This document shows positions 2,191 to 57,773 of a stretch of DNA of 64,000 bases, one piece after another. Below the pieces are notes generated by a model. It worked only from the letters and a program-made list of their open reading frames with translations. It had not been told where the DNA came from and made no database searches. Each line of letters opens with the position of its first letter. Positions within the stretch are counted from its first letter, which is position 1. The DNA is from Chloroflexota bacterium (GTDB lineage Bacteria > Chloroflexota > Anaerolineae > Anaerolineales > E44-bin32): positions 1,071 through 65,070 of the forward strand of contig JADFRG010000012.1 of NCBI GenBank assembly GCA_022561385.1, given 5' to 3'. The position numbers and the translations under genes are program-made.

Positions 2191-3666
2191 GTGAAAGTCC
2201 ACATCATCAACCTGGATCCTGAGGACGATTACTCATCGGCCCGAGACAAACTCTCCTGGGCTCGGGCCCCCCAGGTAGTATTAGTTTGGCCGCGCCGGGG
2301 AAGCCCCTTGAATCGCCGGCTGGATCTGGTGCTTGTCCAGAGACACGCCGTCCGGCTCGGCCTCGAGCTGGGGCTGGTGACCTTCGACCCGGAGGTCATT
2401 GAGATCGCCGAACAGCTCAAGATCCCAGTTTACAGTTCACTCGAGAAGCTGCCGACAGGGCCCTGGTCCGAACCCCAACAGACGACAACCCTCCGCCGAG
2501 AGCGTCCCTCCCTGGCCGAACTGGGTGAGGCGCGCGACTCGGATAACTATCTTCAGTTGGGTCAACGAAGCCGATGGATCGCGGTGGGTATATCCGTCGC
2601 GGCGGTGGCCGCGATCGCCTTGTCCGTGCTGCCCAGCGCAGAAATCGTGATGGACCCGGTAGATATCCCGCTGAAGCGAAGTCTTCCGATTTGGATCGAC
2701 CCTTCGTCTTCCACTGGCCCCAACCGGGTTCCGGGGCAGACGGTATCTACTGAGATTTCGGGGAGCAGGCGAATCGACACATCCGGCCGCGTACGGCTGC
2801 CTCAGGCAACCGCCTCTGGCGAGGTCGAATTCACTAACCTGACCGGCGAGGAAGTCATAGTGCCGGCGGGAACCGGACTGCGCGCCGGCGAGATTCGATT
2901 TATTACTTCGGAAGGTGTTCGGCTGGGCGTCGGCGAAGAGTCGTCGGCCAGACTTCCTGTCCAGGCCGCCGAATCCGGTCGGTCCGGCAACGTATCCGCG
3001 GGAGCGATCCAGTCCGTGGAGGGGCCGCTTGGGTTTCTGGTCACCGTGGGCAACCCTGAGCCCACGAGTGGGGGACGAGATCAAGTGGTGGCCGCGGTAG
3101 GTTTGGGCGATCCCCAAGATCTGCGACGTATGCTGGAGACTGAACTGGTGGAGGCTGCTAGGAGTACCCTTCTATCACAGCTCGCGGGCGGTTTCGAGCT
3201 GGCCCCCGGCAGCCTTCGCCTGCGAGAGATTGTCGATGAGCGTTACGACGTCGGGTTGGGTGAGGCGGCCGATTCGTTGGGGTTGACGCTTACCCTGATG
3301 GTTGAGGGTTTGGCCTACTCCCTCCCGCTGGCCACAGACACTGCTGAACAGGAAATCCGATCGACGCTCCCTGAAAATCGGCTGCTCGTTCCCGGCAGCC
3401 TGACTCTCGAGGCGGTGGAAGGATCTTCAGACTGGCCGGCAATAGAAGTCACCTTTGCAGTGCGGGGCTCTCTGGTAAAGACGGCCGACCAGGATCTGCT
3501 GCGCCGCTCTGTCCTGGGAGGTCCGAAAAGCCAAGCCGCGGATCGATTGGTAAACTTGATCGAACTCGACCAGGAGCCTCAAATAGAAACTTCTCCTGGC
3601 TGGCTGCCCTGGATACCCTGGCTGAGGATGCGCATTGATATAAAGTGGGTATGGGAGAGCGCATAA
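2191..3666 (+). CDS. membrane-anchored protein with a baseplate J/gp47-like segment
   Basis: 491-aa ORF with a GTG start and one TM helix (RWIAVGISVAAVAAIALSVLP). The segment SGRSGNVSAGAIQSVEGPLGFLVTVGNPEPTSGGRD resembles the baseplate J family signature. Recognised by eye, not searched. Confidence 0.6.
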   Translation: MKVHIINLDPEDDYSSARDKLSWARAPQVVLVWPRRGSPLNRRLDLVLVQRHAVRLGLELGLVTFDPEVIEIAEQLKIPVYSSLEKLPTGPWSEPQQTTTLRRERPSLAELGEARDSDNYLQLGQRSRWIAVGISVAAVAAIALSVLPSAEIVMDPVDIPLKRSLPIWIDPSSSTGPNRVPGQTVSTEISGSRRIDTSGRVRLPQATASGEVEFTNLTGEEVIVPAGTGLRAGEIRFITSEGVRLGVGEESSARLPVQAAESGRSGNVSAGAIQSVEGPLGFLVTVGNPEPTSGGRDQVVAAVGLGDPQDLRRMLETELVEAARSTLLSQLAGGFELAPGSLRLREIVDERYDVGLGEAADSLGLTLTLMVEGLAYSLPLATDTAEQEIRSTLPENRLLVPGSLTLEAVEGSSDWPAIEVTFAVRGSLVKTADQDLLRRSVLGGPKSQAADRLVNLIELDQEPQIETSPGWLPWIPWLRMRIDIKWVWESA

Positions 3667-17364: not shown

Positions 17365-17439
17365 GTCATTGCGAGGAGTGCAGCGACGAAGCAATCCCCA
17401 ACACTCAGGAGGAGATTGCTTCGCTACGCTCGCAATGAC
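17365..17439 (+). repeat. 75-bp bulged-hairpin repeat, copy A (forward)
   Basis: GTCATTGCGAGGAGTGCAGCGACGAAGCAATCCCCAACACTCAGGAGGAGATTGCTTCGCTACGCTCGCAATGAC. Lies between the two permease genes. Confidence 0.95.
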
Positions 17440-17456
17440 ATGGCGCAAAAAGGGGC

Positions 17457-35020: not shown

Positions 35021-35095
35021 GTCACTGCGAGGAGCGTAGCGACGAAGCAGTCTCCAACACCTGGGAGGAGATTGCTTCGCTGCGCTCGCAATGAC
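35021..35095 (+). repeat. 75-bp bulged-hairpin repeat, copy B (forward)
   Basis: GTCACTGCGAGGAGCGTAGCGACGAAGCAGTCTCCAACACCTGGGAGGAGATTGCTTCGCTGCGCTCGCAATGAC. Ends 38 nt before the pyk ATG. Confidence 0.95.
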
Positions 35096-35117
35096 ATGGC
35101 AGGATCGATCACTATGC

Positions 35118-36635: not shown

Positions 36636-36710
36636 GTCATTGCGAGGAGCGCAGCGACAAAGCAATCCCCAATACTCGGGAGGAGATTGCTTCGCTACGC
36701 TCGCAATGAC
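36636..36710 (+). repeat. 75-bp bulged-hairpin repeat, copy C (forward)
   Basis: Starts 86 nt after the pyk stop. Lies between convergent pyk and the membrane protein gene (stop 36772). Confidence 0.95.
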
Positions 36711-36771
36711 GGATTCCGTTGGAGACTAAACGCGGACGTTTGAGCTCGTCTTTCAAGCGTCAGAGCAGGGT

Positions 36772-44094: not shown

Positions 44095-45036
44095 CTAGGC
44101 CGCGATATTCAGCTTCTCTTTTAGCCCTTTGATGGTCTGATGGACGTGTTCTGCGGAGGCCTCCAGGGCCGCCTGTTCCTCGTCGTTTAGGTCGTACTCG
44201 ATGACCTTCTCGAGACCATCGGCCCCCAACTGGGCCGGGACGCCAAAAAAGATCCCGCTTTGCCCATATTCCCCATCCAGATAGACCGAGGCCGGAACCA
44301 CCAGGTGACGGTTTTTCAGGATGGCTTCCACCATCTGGGCCAATGCCGCCGACGGTGCGTAGAATGCGCTTCCGGTCTTCAGGAGGCCCACAATTTCGCC
44401 GCCGCCTTTTCGAGTTCGCTGCACGATCGCATCCAGCCGCTCGGGGCTCAGAATCACATTCAGGGGAACGCCGGCCACATTCGAGTGGCGCGTCAACGGC
44501 ACCATCGAATCCCCGTGCCCGCCCAACACATAACAATGGATATTTTGCACACTGATCCCGAGTTCCATGGACACGAAGGCTCGCATTCTGGCCGAATCGA
44601 GAATACCGGCTTGTCCGATGACCCGCTCGCGGGGCAGGCCACCGATCATCATGGCCGCCTGGGACATCACGTCCAGCGGGTTGGTTAGGATGATCAAGAT
44701 CGCATTGGGCGACTCTTCCAGCGATTGTTCCACGGCGGCACGAATGATGTTGGTATTGGTCTCGAGCAAATCATCGCGGCTCATGCCGGGTTTTCGAGGC
44801 AGTCCGGCGGTGATCACTACGATGTCTGAGCCGGCCGTGTCCTTGTAGTTATTGGTGCCGATCACTTTGACGTCTGAGCCGATGACCGGAAGCGCCTCGG
44901 TCAAGTCGAGCGCTTTGCCCTGCGGCATACCTTCCACGATGTCCAGCAGCACCAGGTCGGCCAATTCGCGCTCTGCCAGCCAGTGGGCGGTGGTCGCACC
45001 GGTTTGCCCTGCACCAATAATTGTGACTTTGGCCAT
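44095..45036 (-). CDS. mdh: malate dehydrogenase (LDH-like type)
   Basis: MAKVTIIGAGQTGATTAHWLA Rossmann fold. 313 aa. Confidence 0.92.
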   Translation of the reverse strand: MAKVTIIGAGQTGATTAHWLAERELADLVLLDIVEGMPQGKALDLTEALPVIGSDVKVIGTNNYKDTAGSDIVVITAGLPRKPGMSRDDLLETNTNIIRAAVEQSLEESPNAILIILTNPLDVMSQAAMMIGGLPRERVIGQAGILDSARMRAFVSMELGISVQNIHCYVLGGHGDSMVPLTRHSNVAGVPLNVILSPERLDAIVQRTRKGGGEIVGLLKTGSAFYAPSAALAQMVEAILKNRHLVVPASVYLDGEYGQSGIFFGVPAQLGADGLEKVIEYDLNDEEQAALEASAEHVHQTIKGLKEKLNIAA

Positions 45037-45056: not shown

Positions 45057-46121
45057 TTATTTCCGCACGATTGTGATGCCCGAACCTTCGCGCACCATCC
45101 CAATACGCCAGAAAGGAATATCCTCGCTGCGGGCGCTTTCAACCATCCGCTCAATGAGTTTACCGGGCACGGCCAGGAGCAGGCCGCCTGAGGTCTGCGC
45201 ATCGAAGAGCAGCAATTGTTCCGCCTCCGTAAGGCCGGATTCAAATTCCACCCGATCCTCGAAAAACTTCTTATTGTCCAGTGATCCACCAGGGAAGGTT
45301 CCCAGGTTCGCGTATTCCAGGGCACCAGAAAAGAGCGGCACCTGCTCGAAACGGATCTCCAGGCCCACACCCGAGGCTTCCGCCATTTCGAGGGCATGTC
45401 CAATGAGACCGAATCCCGTGATGTCCGTCGCCGCGCGCACGCCGGCTCTGCGCGCGAGGCCGCTCGCGGAGCGGTTAAGCAATGTCATCCATTCCACGGC
45501 CTCTGTTTCATGATCCCGAGACCCTAGGTCCCGCATGATGGCGGTGGTTGTTACGCCCGTGCCCAGTGGCTTGGTGAGCACCAGAGTGTCTCCGGCTTGC
45601 GCTCCCTTCTTGGTGAGAAGCTCCTTCTCATCGGCTATTCCCAGGGCCACCAGTCCGTATTTGGGTTCCTTGTCTTGAACCGAGTGCCCGCCTGCGATCA
45701 CCGCGCCGGCCTCCTTCACCTTTTCGGCGCCACCCCTGAAAATGGTTTCGATAATGGCCGGATCCAGGTCCACCGGCATGGCCGCGATATTGAGGGTAAG
45801 GAAAGGGCGGGCTCCCATGGCATAAATGTCCGAAAGCGAATTGGCCGCGGCAATCGCGCCGTAGCTGTACGGGTCGTCCACAATCGGCGTGAAAAAGTCG
45901 GTGGTCACCACCAGCACTCGCGACTCGTCCAGCCGCCACACAGCCGCGTCGTCGGGAGTGCTCAAGTCGACCAGCATATCGGCGGGACGATCGTCCTTAA
46001 AAATTTTTTGAACTGGCTGCAGAACCTGCGCCAGGGTCTCCGCAGGAAGCTTAGAAGCTCAACCTGCGCAGGAGGACATGGCGGTCAGCCGGACTTCGCG
46101 CCCCGACTTGGGAACGGCCAT
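45057..46121 (-). CDS. selD: selenide, water dikinase with in-frame UGA (selenocysteine) at codon 21
   Basis: The track ORF 45057-45977 lacks the catalytic N-terminus. The same frame continues upstream through TGA 46061-46059 to ATG 46121 (GAGGAG 7 nt upstream). This gives MAVPKSGREVRLTAMSSCAG-U-ASKLPAETLAQVL, matching the SelD G-C/U-x-x-K loop. Confidence 0.85.
46025..46046 (-). promoter_or_regulatory. candidate bacterial SECIS hairpin in selD mRNA
   Basis: CCUGCG-GAGACCCUGG-CGCAGG starts 12 nt after the UGA. 6-bp stem with a G-rich 10-nt loop. Confidence 0.5.
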
Positions 46122-46240
46122 CGCTTGGCTCCTCGGACTAGGGGATTGTAATCTAGCGGCGCAAAGGTTACCTTCACAGTACCAGGCCCCCGACGTTGAG
46201 GGACAGATGTGGGCGGCGTCGAAGCCAGAATCATCGAATC

Positions 46241-46487
46241 GTCAAAGCGAGGAGCATAGCGACGAAGCGATCCCCAACACCCAGGAGGAGATTGCTTCGC
46301 TACGCTCGCAATGACACGCCCGTCAGGTCAATGCGAGGAGCGTAACGACGAAGCGATCCCCAACATCCAGGAGGAGATTGCTTCGCTGCGCTCGCAATGA
46401 CACGCCCGCCAGGTCACTGCGAGGAGCGCAGCGACGAAGCAGTCTCCATCACCCAGGAGGAGATTGCTTCGCTGCGCTCGCAATGAC
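46241..46487 (+). repeat. three tandem copies (D1 46241-46315, D2 46327-46401, D3 46413-46487) of the 75-bp bulged-hairpin repeat
   Basis: 86-bp period with 11-bp linkers ACGCCCGTCAG / ACGCCCGCCAG. Lies in the divergent selD-modA intergenic region. Confidence 0.95.
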
Positions 46488-46533
46488 ATTGGGTTGAGTG
46501 TGCCGGCAGAAATGGCTCGCGGCTTGTCCTCCG

Positions 46534-47328
46534 ATGGTGTTCGACAATTGTGTTAGATTCCCTCACGCTTTGAACCTGTACCGAGCGCTCCCTGCGGCCA
46601 CTCTGGTGTTTGCCGCAGCCTGTTCGACCGGGCCGCGTGACGAACCGCTGACGGTGGCCGCGGCCGCCAGCCTTGCCCCCATCCTGAACGAGCTGGGAGA
46701 AATCTACGAAGAACAGACCGGTGAGCCCGTCGTATTTTCGTATGGTTCAACCGGCAACCTGGCGCAGCAGATCCGCAATGGAGCTCCATTTGACGTTTTT
46801 GTTTCGGCGGATGCGCTGCGCGTGGACGAATTGATCGCCGAGGCGCTGCTGGACGAGGGCACACGGCTCGCCTTCGCTCGAGGCATCCTGGTACTCGTCG
46901 AGGCGCCCCAGCTCGGATTGTCGCTGCAATCCGTGGAGGACCTCGCCGATCCAATCGTGCGCGATGTAGCTATCGCAAATCCGCGGCATGCACCCTATGG
47001 GATGGCTGCCGCTCAGACACTGCTTCGGACGGGAGTGGAAGTTAAGGTATTGCCCAAGTTAGTGTATGGCGAAAGCGTACGCCAGGCAGGGCTCATGGTC
47101 CAGAGTGGAAACGTTGACGCGGGCCTGATCGCGCTGTCCATCGCCAAGAGCGTGGGTCTCGACGGCCTCGAACTGCCGCAGGAGTTGTATGACCCGATTC
47201 AACACGTGGCCGCGGTCCTGAGTGATGCGCCTCGACCGGAGCAGGCCGCACGGTTCTTAGAATTCCTTTCAAGCCCGCAGGCACAGGCACTGTACCGACG
47301 GTTGGGCCTGGAACCCCCAGGGGGATGA
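46534..47328 (+). CDS. modA: molybdate ABC transporter substrate-binding protein
   Basis: Lipobox-like LVFAAAC. ModA strings SYGSTGNLAQQI and FVSAD. Start ambiguous (46498 track, ATG 46534, TTG 46570). Confidence 0.85.
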   Translation: MVFDNCVRFPHALNLYRALPAATLVFAAACSTGPRDEPLTVAAAASLAPILNELGEIYEEQTGEPVVFSYGSTGNLAQQIRNGAPFDVFVSADALRVDELIAEALLDEGTRLAFARGILVLVEAPQLGLSLQSVEDLADPIVRDVAIANPRHAPYGMAAAQTLLRTGVEVKVLPKLVYGESVRQAGLMVQSGNVDAGLIALSIAKSVGLDGLELPQELYDPIQHVAAVLSDAPRPEQAARFLEFLSSPQAQALYRRLGLEPPGG

Positions 47329-47332
47329 ACCT

Positions 47333-48007
47333 TTGTTGACTCCACTGCTCTTGTCTTTGAGAGTGGCCGGCCTGGCCACGCTCTTCGCGATCGTGTTTGG
47401 CGTCGCGATTGCTGCGCTCCTCACGCGCCGCCACAGCGCGCCGGCCAATGTCGCGGATGCCGTGGTCAACCTCCCGCTCGTCCTGCCGCCCACCGTCCTG
47501 GGTTACTATCTTCTGGTGCTCCTGGGTGCGCGATCGCCGCTCGGTGCGTGGCTCGAGAGCGTCGGCATTGAGCTGGTATTTACATGGCAGGGTGCGGTGG
47601 TGGCGGCGAGCATCGTAGCTTTGCCGCTGGTGGTTGGATCGACCCGAGCCGCACTTGAGGCCGTCGATCCAGATCTTCGAGACGTGGCGCGCACCCTTGG
47701 CCAATCGAACACGGCCATCTTCCTGACCATAATGCTCCCTCTCGCCTGGCGAGGCCTGCTGGCCGGCGGGATGTTGGCCTTCGCGCGCGCGCTCGGAGAG
47801 TTTGGGGCCACGCTTATGATTGCCGGAAATATCCCCGGCCGCACACAGACTCTGCCTATCGCCATTTATGACTCGGTTCAGGCCGGAGACCTGGCTTCCG
47901 CCAATCGCCAGGCCTTACTGCTCACCCTGGTGGCGGTCGCACTACTCGTGAGCATGCGATATCTCGGCAGCGCTCTGGCAGGAAGGAAGATGCGTGACCG
48001 CGGCTGA
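47333..48007 (+). CDS. modB: molybdate ABC transporter permease
   Basis: 224 aa. EAA-loop-like VDPDLRDVARTLG. Confidence 0.88.
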   Translation: MLTPLLLSLRVAGLATLFAIVFGVAIAALLTRRHSAPANVADAVVNLPLVLPPTVLGYYLLVLLGARSPLGAWLESVGIELVFTWQGAVVAASIVALPLVVGSTRAALEAVDPDLRDVARTLGQSNTAIFLTIMLPLAWRGLLAGGMLAFARALGEFGATLMIAGNIPGRTQTLPIAIYDSVQAGDLASANRQALLLTLVAVALLVSMRYLGSALAGRKMRDRG

Positions 48008-49082
48008 ATTTCGCGCCTCCTTCAGCCTTCATTTCCCGGACTTCGATCTGGCACCTAAATTCGAGTTGGGTCCCGAGATGGCGGTATTGTTCGGCGCCTC
48101 CGGGGCGGGAAAATCGCTCACATTGCGGGCCCTGGCTGGGCTGGAAAAACCCGATCGGGGAACCATTCATCTCAATGGCCATGCACTTTTCGACAGCGAA
48201 GAAGAGATCGATCTCCCTCCCCAGGATCGAAGGATCGGCTACGTCCCGCAGCACTACGCCCTATTCCCGCACCAATCGGTCGCGAAGAATATCGCCTTTG
48301 GCTTGCATGATCTTCCGCGCGCCAGCCGCGCGGCGCGAGTGTCGGAGCTTCTCACACGGATGCGGCTGGAACCGTTCGCCGATCGTCGGCCCGGTGAGCT
48401 TTCGGGCGGTCAGCAACAGCGAACCGCGCTCGCGCGGGCCCTGGCACGGCGCCCGGATTTGCTGCTGATGGACGAACCGTTCGCGGCGGTGGAGGAGGAC
48501 CTGCGCGCGCACCTGCGCGAGGAATTGCTCAGGATCCAAAAGGAATTTGCCATTCCGGTTTTACTCGTGACCCACAGCCGGGCCGAGGCTTATGCGATGG
48601 CCGAGCGCCTGGTTGTCATTCGCGAGGGGCAGGTCGTTCAAACTGGAAGCCGGGATGACGTTTTTCGTAGACCGCGTACCCCGGGCGTCGCACGGTTGAT
48701 GGGCATGACCAACATTCTTCAGGTGACCGTAGCCGACGGATCGGCGCCCGAGGTGCTGACCGACTGGGGAAACCTGAAACTCACCATTGGCACACCCGAT
48801 TCCTACGCCACAGGCAGTTCACTTGCGGTTGGCATCCGGCCGGAGGAAATCCGAATTGCTGCCGCGGAATCCCAAATTCAGCCGGCAAACCAGCTTACAG
48901 CTCGACTGGTCAAAGACGAGCCGCAGGGAGCGGACCACCGACTGCAATTTGAGATCAATAATCAACTGCTTGAAGTTCGCGTGTCGCATCCGGAATTTAT
49001 GTCCCTAAACCTGGCCGGTGGCCAGGAACGCACGCTGACGGTGCAGCCGAGCGCGATACACGTAATCCCCGATCCGGATTAA
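47994..49082 (+). CDS. modC: molybdate ABC transporter ATP-binding protein with a TOBE-like C-domain
   Basis: Walker A GASGAGKS, signature LSGGQQQR, Walker B LLMDEP, and about 120 aa of C-terminal extension. Confidence 0.88.
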   Translation: MTAAEFRASFSLHFPDFDLAPKFELGPEMAVLFGASGAGKSLTLRALAGLEKPDRGTIHLNGHALFDSEEEIDLPPQDRRIGYVPQHYALFPHQSVAKNIAFGLHDLPRASRAARVSELLTRMRLEPFADRRPGELSGGQQQRTALARALARRPDLLLMDEPFAAVEEDLRAHLREELLRIQKEFAIPVLLVTHSRAEAYAMAERLVVIREGQVVQTGSRDDVFRRPRTPGVARLMGMTNILQVTVADGSAPEVLTDWGNLKLTIGTPDSYATGSSLAVGIRPEEIRIAAAESQIQPANQLTARLVKDEPQGADHRLQFEINNQLLEVRVSHPEFMSLNLAGGQERTLTVQPSAIHVIPDPD

Positions 49083-52704: not shown

Positions 52705-52722
52705 GCACCTATCTCCCTTAAT

Positions 52723-52797
52723 GTCATTGCGAGCGTAGCGAAGCAATCTCCTCCTGAGTATTGGGGATTGCTTCGTCGCTACGCTCCTCGCAATGAC
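52723..52797 (-). repeat. 75-bp bulged-hairpin repeat, copy E (inverted orientation)
   Basis: Its reverse complement matches copies A-D. Overlaps the last 24 codons and the stop of ORF 52724-53158. Ends 19 nt from the apbC GTG. Confidence 0.95.
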
Positions 52798-57356: not shown

Positions 57357-57773
57357 ATGGCGACTCTCGATTTTCCACTAACTGAGACTAAGGTCGTTGA
57401 GCAGACTCCCGGCATTACGTTGACCGATGGCGCTATTCGGAGAGTGCGGGCGTTGATTCAGGAGAAGCAGGTCCCGGGCGCGGCTCTGCGCGTGTATGTT
57501 TCCGGCGGCGGGTGCTCGGGAATGCAATACGGCATGGGGCTGGAACCGGATCCACGGGCAACCGATATCCGATACAAGTTTGATGACGTCCAGGTCGTCA
57601 TAGACCCGAATTCGATGGAGTACCTGTCCGGTATGACCATTGACTATGTAGACGACCTGATGGGGGGCGGTTTCAAGATCGACAATCCGCAGGCGGTAAG
57701 TTCCTGCGGCTGTGGCCACTCATTCAAGACGGAGGAAGCGTCGCAGGCCGGCTCCGCGGATAGCTGCTGCTAA
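57357..57773 (+). CDS. A-type Fe-S cluster carrier (HesB/IscA/ErpA family) with a C-terminal extension ending in Cys-Cys
   Basis: LRVYVSGGGCSGMQY and SSCGCGHSF signatures. Extra tail KTEEASQAGSADSCC. Confidence 0.88.
   Translation: MATLDFPLTETKVVEQTPGITLTDGAIRRVRALIQEKQVPGAALRVYVSGGGCSGMQYGMGLEPDPRATDIRYKFDDVQVVIDPNSMEYLSGMTIDYVDDLMGGGFKIDNPQAVSSCGCGHSFKTEEASQAGSADSCC

Follow-up and report, generated by a model that had tools for sequence, protein, structure and literature searches.

SelD has long been known as a selenoprotein in many bacteria, with an in-frame UGA as a well-known feature of the family, and forms containing selenocysteine (Sec) have been described in Haemophilus influenzae, clostridia and deltaproteobacteria. 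In SelD from Escherichia coli, Cys17 and Lys20 are required for activity, as established biochemically, and a related solved structure is that of SelD from Aquifex aeolicus (PDB 2yye/2zod). Of all bacterial selenoprotein families, FdhA and SelD have been reported to be the most widespread two (PMC1794560, PMC5029168, PMC9312934, PMC13188914), and the bacterial selenocysteine insertion sequence (bSECIS) elements of SelD have already been treated in the literature (PMC4561486). Here we analyze the selD gene in a stretch of 64,000 nucleotides from a Chloroflexota bacterium (contig JADFRG010000012.1; the whole stretch is called the window in the following). With high probability the minus-strand region 46121-45057 is one gene for a SelD of 354 residues, with Sec encoded by the UGA at 46061-46059 and a SECIS most likely located at 46034-46013. 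A first-pass annotation, made from the sequence alone, had proposed that this selD encodes a selenoprotein which the open reading frame (ORF) track cuts at the Sec UGA; family models, the alignment to Cys17 and the conservation of the UGA strongly support this, and its core interpretation is very probably right. The locus shares with the Sec-type bacterial SelD (TIGR00476) the family, the two AIRS domains, the UGA at the Cys17 position with a Lys three residues later and also a stem-loop inside the coding sequence downstream of the UGA. The features of the gene are as follows.

45057..46121, minus strand: full-length selD coding sequence, 354 codons plus TAA stop, predicted Sec at codon 21 (from translation)
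46129..46134, minus strand: GAGGAG, Shine-Dalgarno-like, 7-nt spacer to the ATG (read from the sequence)
46119..46121, minus strand: ATG, true start codon of selD (from the sequence; the N-terminus agrees with the closest relatives)
46059..46061, minus strand: in-frame UGA, putative Sec codon (residue 21), at the position of E. coli SelD Cys17
46050..46052, minus strand: Lys24 codon, equivalent to the catalytic-loop Lys20 of E. coli SelD (ungapped phmmer alignment to 3u0o)
46032..46034, minus strand: Leu30 CTG, false start of the 325-aa NCBI records, e.g. MCH7610195.1
45975..45977, minus strand: Met49 ATG, false start of the 306-aa ORF call, Leu in homologs at this position

Read on the minus strand from ATG 46121, the frame contains only one TGA (46061-46059) and is then open to the TAA at 45059-45057, and the mechanical ORF list holds only a piece of 306 aa starting at ATG 45977. 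The start codon, the GAGGAG 7 nt upstream of it and the single TGA had all been placed by the first-pass annotation at exactly these coordinates, and translation also yielded the N-terminal peptide it had claimed to be gained by read-through, MAVPKSGREVRLTAMSSCAG-U-ASKLPAETLAQVLQPVQKIFKDDRPAD. The N-terminus MAVPKSGREVRLT agrees with that of the closest relatives, as for example MAVAPSGRQIRLT in locus L021. These closest relatives are found in metagenome-assembled genomes (MAGs) of Anaerolineae/Chloroflexota and show 56-60% identity.

For the assignment to the SelD family the 354-aa protein was scored with a neutral X (or Cys) at codon 21. Aligned in this full-length form, as had been suggested, it matches the SelD models from profile position 1 and above the curated equivalog cutoffs, with 362.8 bits for TIGR00476 (cutoff 125, profile positions 1-307) and 326.2 bits for NF002098 (cutoff 299). 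The match of the 325-aa form starts at profile position 22 (342.3 bits) and that of the 306-aa form only at position 39 (337.8 bits); the latter, which begins with Met49, therefore lacks the catalytic loop, as had been noticed before. Pfam places the AIRS domain (PF00586) at residues 57-163 with 93.9 bits and the AIRS_C domain (PF02769) at residues 175-352 with 79.6 bits. Among solved structures the best phmmer match is E. coli SelD 3u0o (E = 8.6e-67, residues 8-336), and the N-terminal part of this alignment is ungapped with residue 8 of the query on residue 4 of 3u0o, so that U21 falls on Cys17 and K24 on Lys20. The read-through N-terminus thus aligns with E. coli SelD in the way the first-pass annotation had described, and the protein has the glycine-rich N-terminal loop of the family, in which Lys occupies the position of Lys20 and Sec or Cys that of Cys17. 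It is predicted to make selenophosphate from selenide in an ATP-dependent reaction.

In order to follow the UGA codon through the family we scanned for homologs with one genome per species and obtained 80 SelD loci. The active-site motif was identifiable in 78 loci, a number that includes the window, and of these 68 (the window and 67 others from many phyla) have TGA as the aligned codon, the remaining 10 having TGC or TGT. Conservation extends to both sides of the UGA, and the peptide encoded 5' of it follows the pattern RLTxxSxCAG, a conservation not expected of a 5' untranslated region.

The RNA downstream of the UGA was folded for the window as well as for the relatives. The minimum free energy (MFE) fold of the UGA-proximal RNA of the window consists of two hairpins.

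46013..46034, minus strand: helix B, SECIS-like hairpin CUGGCGCAG-GUU-CUGC(A)GCCAG (MFE fold, covariation)
46039..46070, minus strand: helix C, GCGCAGG (Cys18-Ala-Gly codons) paired with CCUGCG, encloses the UGA (MFE fold)

Helix B has 9 bp with one bulged A, an apical loop GUU at 46025-46023 that lies 32-33 nt past the UGA and an energy of -12.7 kcal/mol in the window. When the relatives are folded singly, one hairpin recurs at the position of helix B, GGCGCAG-GUU-CUGCGCC. All pair counts given here for the helices were made on an ungapped, codon-registered alignment of the 68 UGA-form sequences (A1), in which 79.6% of the helix B cells are paired (n = 68) compared to 31-51% when the 3' partner is slid. 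Double-sided changes number 70 against 23.6±3.9 in shuffled alignments and the covariation score is 0.343 against 0.136, both values being reached in none of 500 shuffles. In 18 sequences pair 45-49 is A-U in place of G-C, both changes being synonymous (Gln CAG to CAA together with Leu CUG to UUG), and pair 42-52 shows all four Watson-Crick types, coupling a synonymous third position in an Ala codon to position one of the next-but-two codon, which is variable. Protein constraint cannot explain this covariation of helix B. As negative control served the 10 homologs of the Cys form; the peptide LAQVLR has a similar counterpart in several of them. In the Cys forms helix B is weak or absent, with 3.4 of 6 core pairs kept compared to 5.3 of 6 in the Sec forms and a mean energy of the segment of -3.1 compared to -9.5 kcal/mol. 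Covariation and the weakness or absence in the Cys forms together indicate that helix B is under selection at the RNA level.

Helix B also agrees with the published consensus for bSECIS elements, which asks for a stem of 4-16 bp capped by an apical loop of 3-9 nt (PMC13188914, Fig. 2 legend), a G within the first two loop positions that is usually followed by G or U (PMC13188914) and a distance of 16-37 nt from the UGA to the loop with an MFE of -7.5 kcal/mol or lower (PMC13188914). Helix B agrees with it in all four points, having a stem of 9 bp, a GUU loop at a distance of 33 nt and an energy of -12.7 kcal/mol. We therefore regard 46034-46013 as a conserved SECIS-like element that is most likely the SECIS of this selD. 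In the mechanism that we propose, a hairpin of the mRNA inside the coding sequence would do the recruiting for Sec insertion, most likely the stem-loop 46034-46013 with its G-first apical loop GUU 33 nt past the UGA, and Sec would then be inserted in place of termination. SelD would supply the selenophosphate for charging tRNA(Sec), and the enzyme would therefore depend on its own product. That Sec is actually inserted at residue 21 is suggested by what was observed for gene structure, family, alignment and the conservation of both UGA and hairpin.

Several observations weigh against this picture, some concerning the hairpin and some the Sec machinery. Under default scoring the RNAalifold consensus of the 68 aligned sequences contained no pairs. 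Only under RIBOSUM scoring did helix B appear, and the consensus was then precisely this helix (columns 38-45 with 49-56, -16.2 kcal/mol); helix B is also present in 54 of the 68 single-sequence MFE folds. Since the pair counts, the slid controls, the Cys-form control and the RIBOSUM result all support helix B, we do not hold the empty default consensus to refute it. The window copy differs from most relatives by its bulged A and by a register shift of one base in the lower part, and its loop is near the upper spacing limit, about 14 nt farther out than in E. coli fdhF. Rfam found no SECIS or other relevant family, neither in the window at gathering thresholds nor in 45900-46200 at E ≤ 10, where only chance snoRNA-like matches appeared. 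As to the machinery, a tRNA-Sec is not present in the 64-kb window, for which ARAGORN gave tRNA-Gly(CCC) only and Rfam likewise nothing besides tRNA-Gly. SelA, SelB and SelU are not among the 20 large window ORFs scanned with NCBIfam, tblastn with E. coli SelA and SelB matched neither the window nor the Anaerolineae loci, and the genes called in the 10 kb past each window edge on longer public contigs include neither selA nor selB, flanks that were not scanned for tRNA-Sec. A credible second selenoprotein gene was also not found in the window by scans for TGA-split ORFs based on length and on codon-usage log-odds, both of which mostly picked up frames antisense to real genes. We infer that selA, selB and selC are located elsewhere in the genome. 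It is plausible, judged from the sequence, that the organism decodes UGA as Sec.

The first-pass annotation had assigned the SECIS function to another hairpin, CCUGCG-N10-CGCAGG, and two more pairings have to be considered together with it.

46025..46046, minus strand: helix A, the hairpin of the first-pass annotation, an alternative, lineage-specific pairing
A1 columns 25-28 with 33-36 (columns 25-36 equal window 46046-46035): helix D, small hairpin between the UGA and helix B

Helix A does exist at 46046-46025, with the arms CCUGCG (46046-46041) and CGCAGG (46030-46025) and a 10-nt loop. As its 3' arm CGCAGG is at the same time the 5' arm of helix B, the two are mutually exclusive. One could ask whether SelD is indeed a selenoprotein in this species with helix A as its functional SECIS in place of helix B. 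Its stem begins 12 nt and its loop 18 nt past the UGA, the latter being the loop spacing of the E. coli fdhF SECIS, its loop starts with G and its energy of -9.7 kcal/mol passes the limit of -7.5 kcal/mol. A lineage-specific replacement is also conceivable, because helix D of many relatives has been lost in the window. On the other hand, only 30.6% of the helix A cells are paired in the 68 UGA forms, which equals the shuffle mean, and there is no covariation; the closest relatives even have AACGCG or AAUGCG in place of CCUGCG, making helix A impossible there. Moreover, with 10 nt its loop is longer than the consensus allows (3-9 nt) and begins with GA and not with G[G/U] (PMC13188914), and the more stable helix B (-12.7 kcal/mol) is part of the MFE fold of the window whereas helix A is not. 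We thus consider helix A an unlikely SECIS, and the earlier assignment was most likely wrong in this part even though the hairpin itself is present. Helix A is kept as a minor rival, and for this species only, because of the fdhF-like spacing, the one point in its favour in the comparison with fdhF.

Helix D is 63.6% paired in A1 with some covariation, and many relatives show it as GGUC-NNNN-GACC, while in the closest Anaerolineae its place is taken by GCG-GAAA-CGC, displaced by one base. For the window it was rejected, since Gly-Pro became Pro-Ala and neither helix D nor its shifted Anaerolineae form can be made there. Helix C, which would sequester the UGA and has an energy of -15.2 kcal/mol, was rejected as a conserved element with 43.7% of its cells paired in the relatives against a shuffle mean of 42.6%. 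The window contains three copies of a 6-7-nt element, with GCGCAGG preceding the UGA, CCUGCG following it and CGCAGG forming part of the 5' arm of the SECIS-like hairpin. These copies allow three mutually exclusive hairpins, namely the SECIS-like B, A, and C with the UGA buried in it. One might imagine a conformational switch that tunes Sec insertion versus termination in selD and that could, for example, provide a selenium-responsive autoregulation of an enzyme dependent on its own product. More modestly, SelD might hypothetically be the one selenoprotein by which the Sec trait is kept up in this lineage. We regard such a switch as quite improbable. Helices A and C are not conserved in the relatives.

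It could also be argued that the TGA is a genuine stop, be it through a nonsense mutation, in a pseudogene or by faulty assembly, or that translation starts downstream at CTG 46034 or ATG 45977, giving a truncated SelD-like product. Gene callers and NCBI records do take these downstream starts, and no Sec machinery was found in the DNA examined. The sequence from -120 to +1100 around the TGA is, however, base-for-base the same as that of the window in six independent assemblies from different studies, which excludes a sequencing error or a private nonsense mutation, and 67 other genomes have the same codon. The 20 codons upstream are conserved as protein and add 25 bits to the score for the SelD model, a good ribosome-binding site precedes ATG 46121, Met49 and Leu30 correspond to internal conserved positions of the homologs and the truncated product would be without the loop aligned to Cys17 and Lys20 of E. 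coli. A genuine stop is thus highly improbable. The possibility that UGA is reassigned genome-wide to Trp or Gly (codes 4/25) without any Sec is practically negligible, as only the in-frame TGA itself speaks for it, while TGA is the stop of 14 of the 36 other large window ORFs, family-confirmed genes included, so that the code is standard and read-through must be site-specific, the homologs carry Cys, the counterpart of Sec, at this codon and not Trp or Gly, and we know of no such reassignment in Chloroflexota.

A selenoprotein SelD that is read through the UGA has consequences for the public annotation. The identical 306-aa ORF is found on at least 24 metagenome contigs, and overall the SelD of this widespread uncultured Chloroflexota species is represented on dozens of metagenome contigs and in at least four NCBI MAGs. 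The cluster of the 306-aa ORF also holds proteins deposited at NCBI from Chloroflexota MAGs under the name SelD. These proteins of the species have 325 aa and begin with M-AQVLQP, their start falling on the Leu30 CTG just past the UGA. They are therefore without the catalytic loop, and the selenoprotein form of the SelD of this species is missing from the public record.

325-aa SelD records at NCBI: MCH7610195.1, MCH8341508.1, MCH8876533.1, MCI0772777.1, MCH8093656.1, MCH8338477.1
MAG assemblies of the species: GCA_022574135.1, GCA_022626265.1, GCA_022568065.1, GCA_022626045.1

The correct product would be 354 aa long with Sec21, while the public calls of 306 or 325 aa are without the catalytic residue. 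This is a correction of the annotation and no new biology, and the current understanding of selenium biology is unchanged. The genome should nevertheless be treated as Sec-decoding, and other TGA-split ORFs (FdhA, HdrA, peroxiredoxins etc.) merit re-inspection. It also follows from the comparison of helices A and B that the functional hairpin need not be the first one past the UGA.

Two genes of the window were looked at with regard to selenium. A TRZ/ATZ hydrolase was rejected as selenium-related, as it reached only 210.9 in the Se_ssnA model with a cutoff of 455.5. Some bacteria have HesB-like proteins that are selenoproteins (PMC1794560, Table 3), and window 57357-57773 on the plus strand (L089 15347-15763) encodes a 138-aa HesB/IscA-type Fe-S biogenesis protein (PF01521). 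This copy is called in full length and shows no sign of an internal UGA.

The immediate neighbours of selD are the following.

44095..45036, minus strand: malate/lactate dehydrogenase gene (Ldh_1_N and Ldh_1_C), 20 nt downstream of selD
46498-49082, plus strand: three-gene ATP-binding cassette (ABC) transporter divergent from selD, with an SBP_bac_11 binding protein, a permease and an ATPase with TOBE_2

The malate/lactate dehydrogenase gene is probably co-transcribed with selD. From its domains the divergent transporter looks like a ModABC-type importer of molybdate or tungstate. One may speculate that a molybdenum/tungsten (Mo/W) transporter beside selD would be in line with a formate dehydrogenase, encoded elsewhere in the genome, that depends on both Sec and Mo/W.

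The intergenic region between selD and modA contains 2.9 tandem copies of an 86-nt unit (window 46241-46488), 120 nt upstream of the selD ATG, with a palindrome inside each unit (GCGAAGCAATC.../...GATTGCTTCGC). Related copies lie scattered over the window at 17411-17440, 35067-35096, 36682-36711 and 52722-52751, and a 30-mer of the repeat has 7 matches in the window with 0 expected. The copy number varies between assemblies, as the alignments of L003 and L005 break inside the array, consistent with one unit fewer. The repeat looks like an element of the repetitive extragenic palindromic or miniature inverted-repeat transposable element (REP/MITE) type. Farther away, at 2191-3666 on the plus strand, an ORF of 491 aa without NCBIfam match is located between alaS and ruvX/mltG. 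In the precomputed gene table its product has a match to Pfam Baseplate_J (phage baseplate), which is odd in a conserved housekeeping neighbourhood.

With respect to gene order the locus differs from the described Sec operons. Relatives from Verrucomicrobia and Clostridia have a UGA-containing selD in clusters of tRNA-Sec, selD, selA and selB. These clusters support the general link between a UGA-containing selD and the Sec machinery and say nothing direct about the organism studied here. In the five Verrucomicrobia loci L048, L060, L062, L067 and L068 a tRNA-Sec lies about 90-230 nt upstream of the UGA-containing selD, and there as well as in many Firmicutes selD is directly followed by selA and mostly also by selB, forming compact Sec operons.

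Firmicutes loci of this comparison: L024, L025, L032, L036, L039, L052, L056, L059, L066, L074, L083

This arrangement is missing in the window and in the Anaerolineae loci. Whereas selD stands beside selA, selB and tRNA-Sec in the relatives with Sec operons, in the window it is located upstream of the malate/lactate dehydrogenase gene and divergent from the modABC-like transporter.

The active site can be compared directly with that of E. coli SelD, which is a Cys form with Cys17 encoded by TGC and without SECIS, in contrast to the UGA and helix B of the window SelD. The active-site loop reads C-A-G-U-A-S-K here, with a Cys at -3 and none at +2, and G-C-G-C-K in E. coli.

A1 columns 1-3 and 16-18, equal to window 46070-46068 and 46055-46053: positions -3 and +2 used for the Cys comparison

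Among the 68 UGA-form SelDs, 33 have the Cys at -3 as in the window (C-A-G-U, CxxU) and 8 have it at +2 (U-G-C-K, as in C-G-C-K of E. coli); both Cys occur together in none and neither occurs in 27. Judged from this alignment, a second thiol seems to be placed at alternative positions in different lineages.

The closest counterpart of helix B is the SECIS of E. coli fdhF, the experimentally defined SelB-binding minihelix, which we took from NC_000913.3. Both elements have an apical loop containing G and U and are located in frame downstream of the UGA. They differ in the start of the loop, 18 nt after the UGA in fdhF and 32-33 nt in helix B, in one extra U in the loop of helix B and in the bulge, where the window has a 3'-side A and the fdhF SECIS a 5'-side U. 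Helix B would be the presumed binding site of SelB. Across phyla SelD retains this SECIS-like hairpin, whose apical sequence closely resembles that of the fdhF SECIS, the apical part of helix B in the window (GCAGGUUCUGC) being nearly identical to that of fdhF (GCAGGUCUGC).

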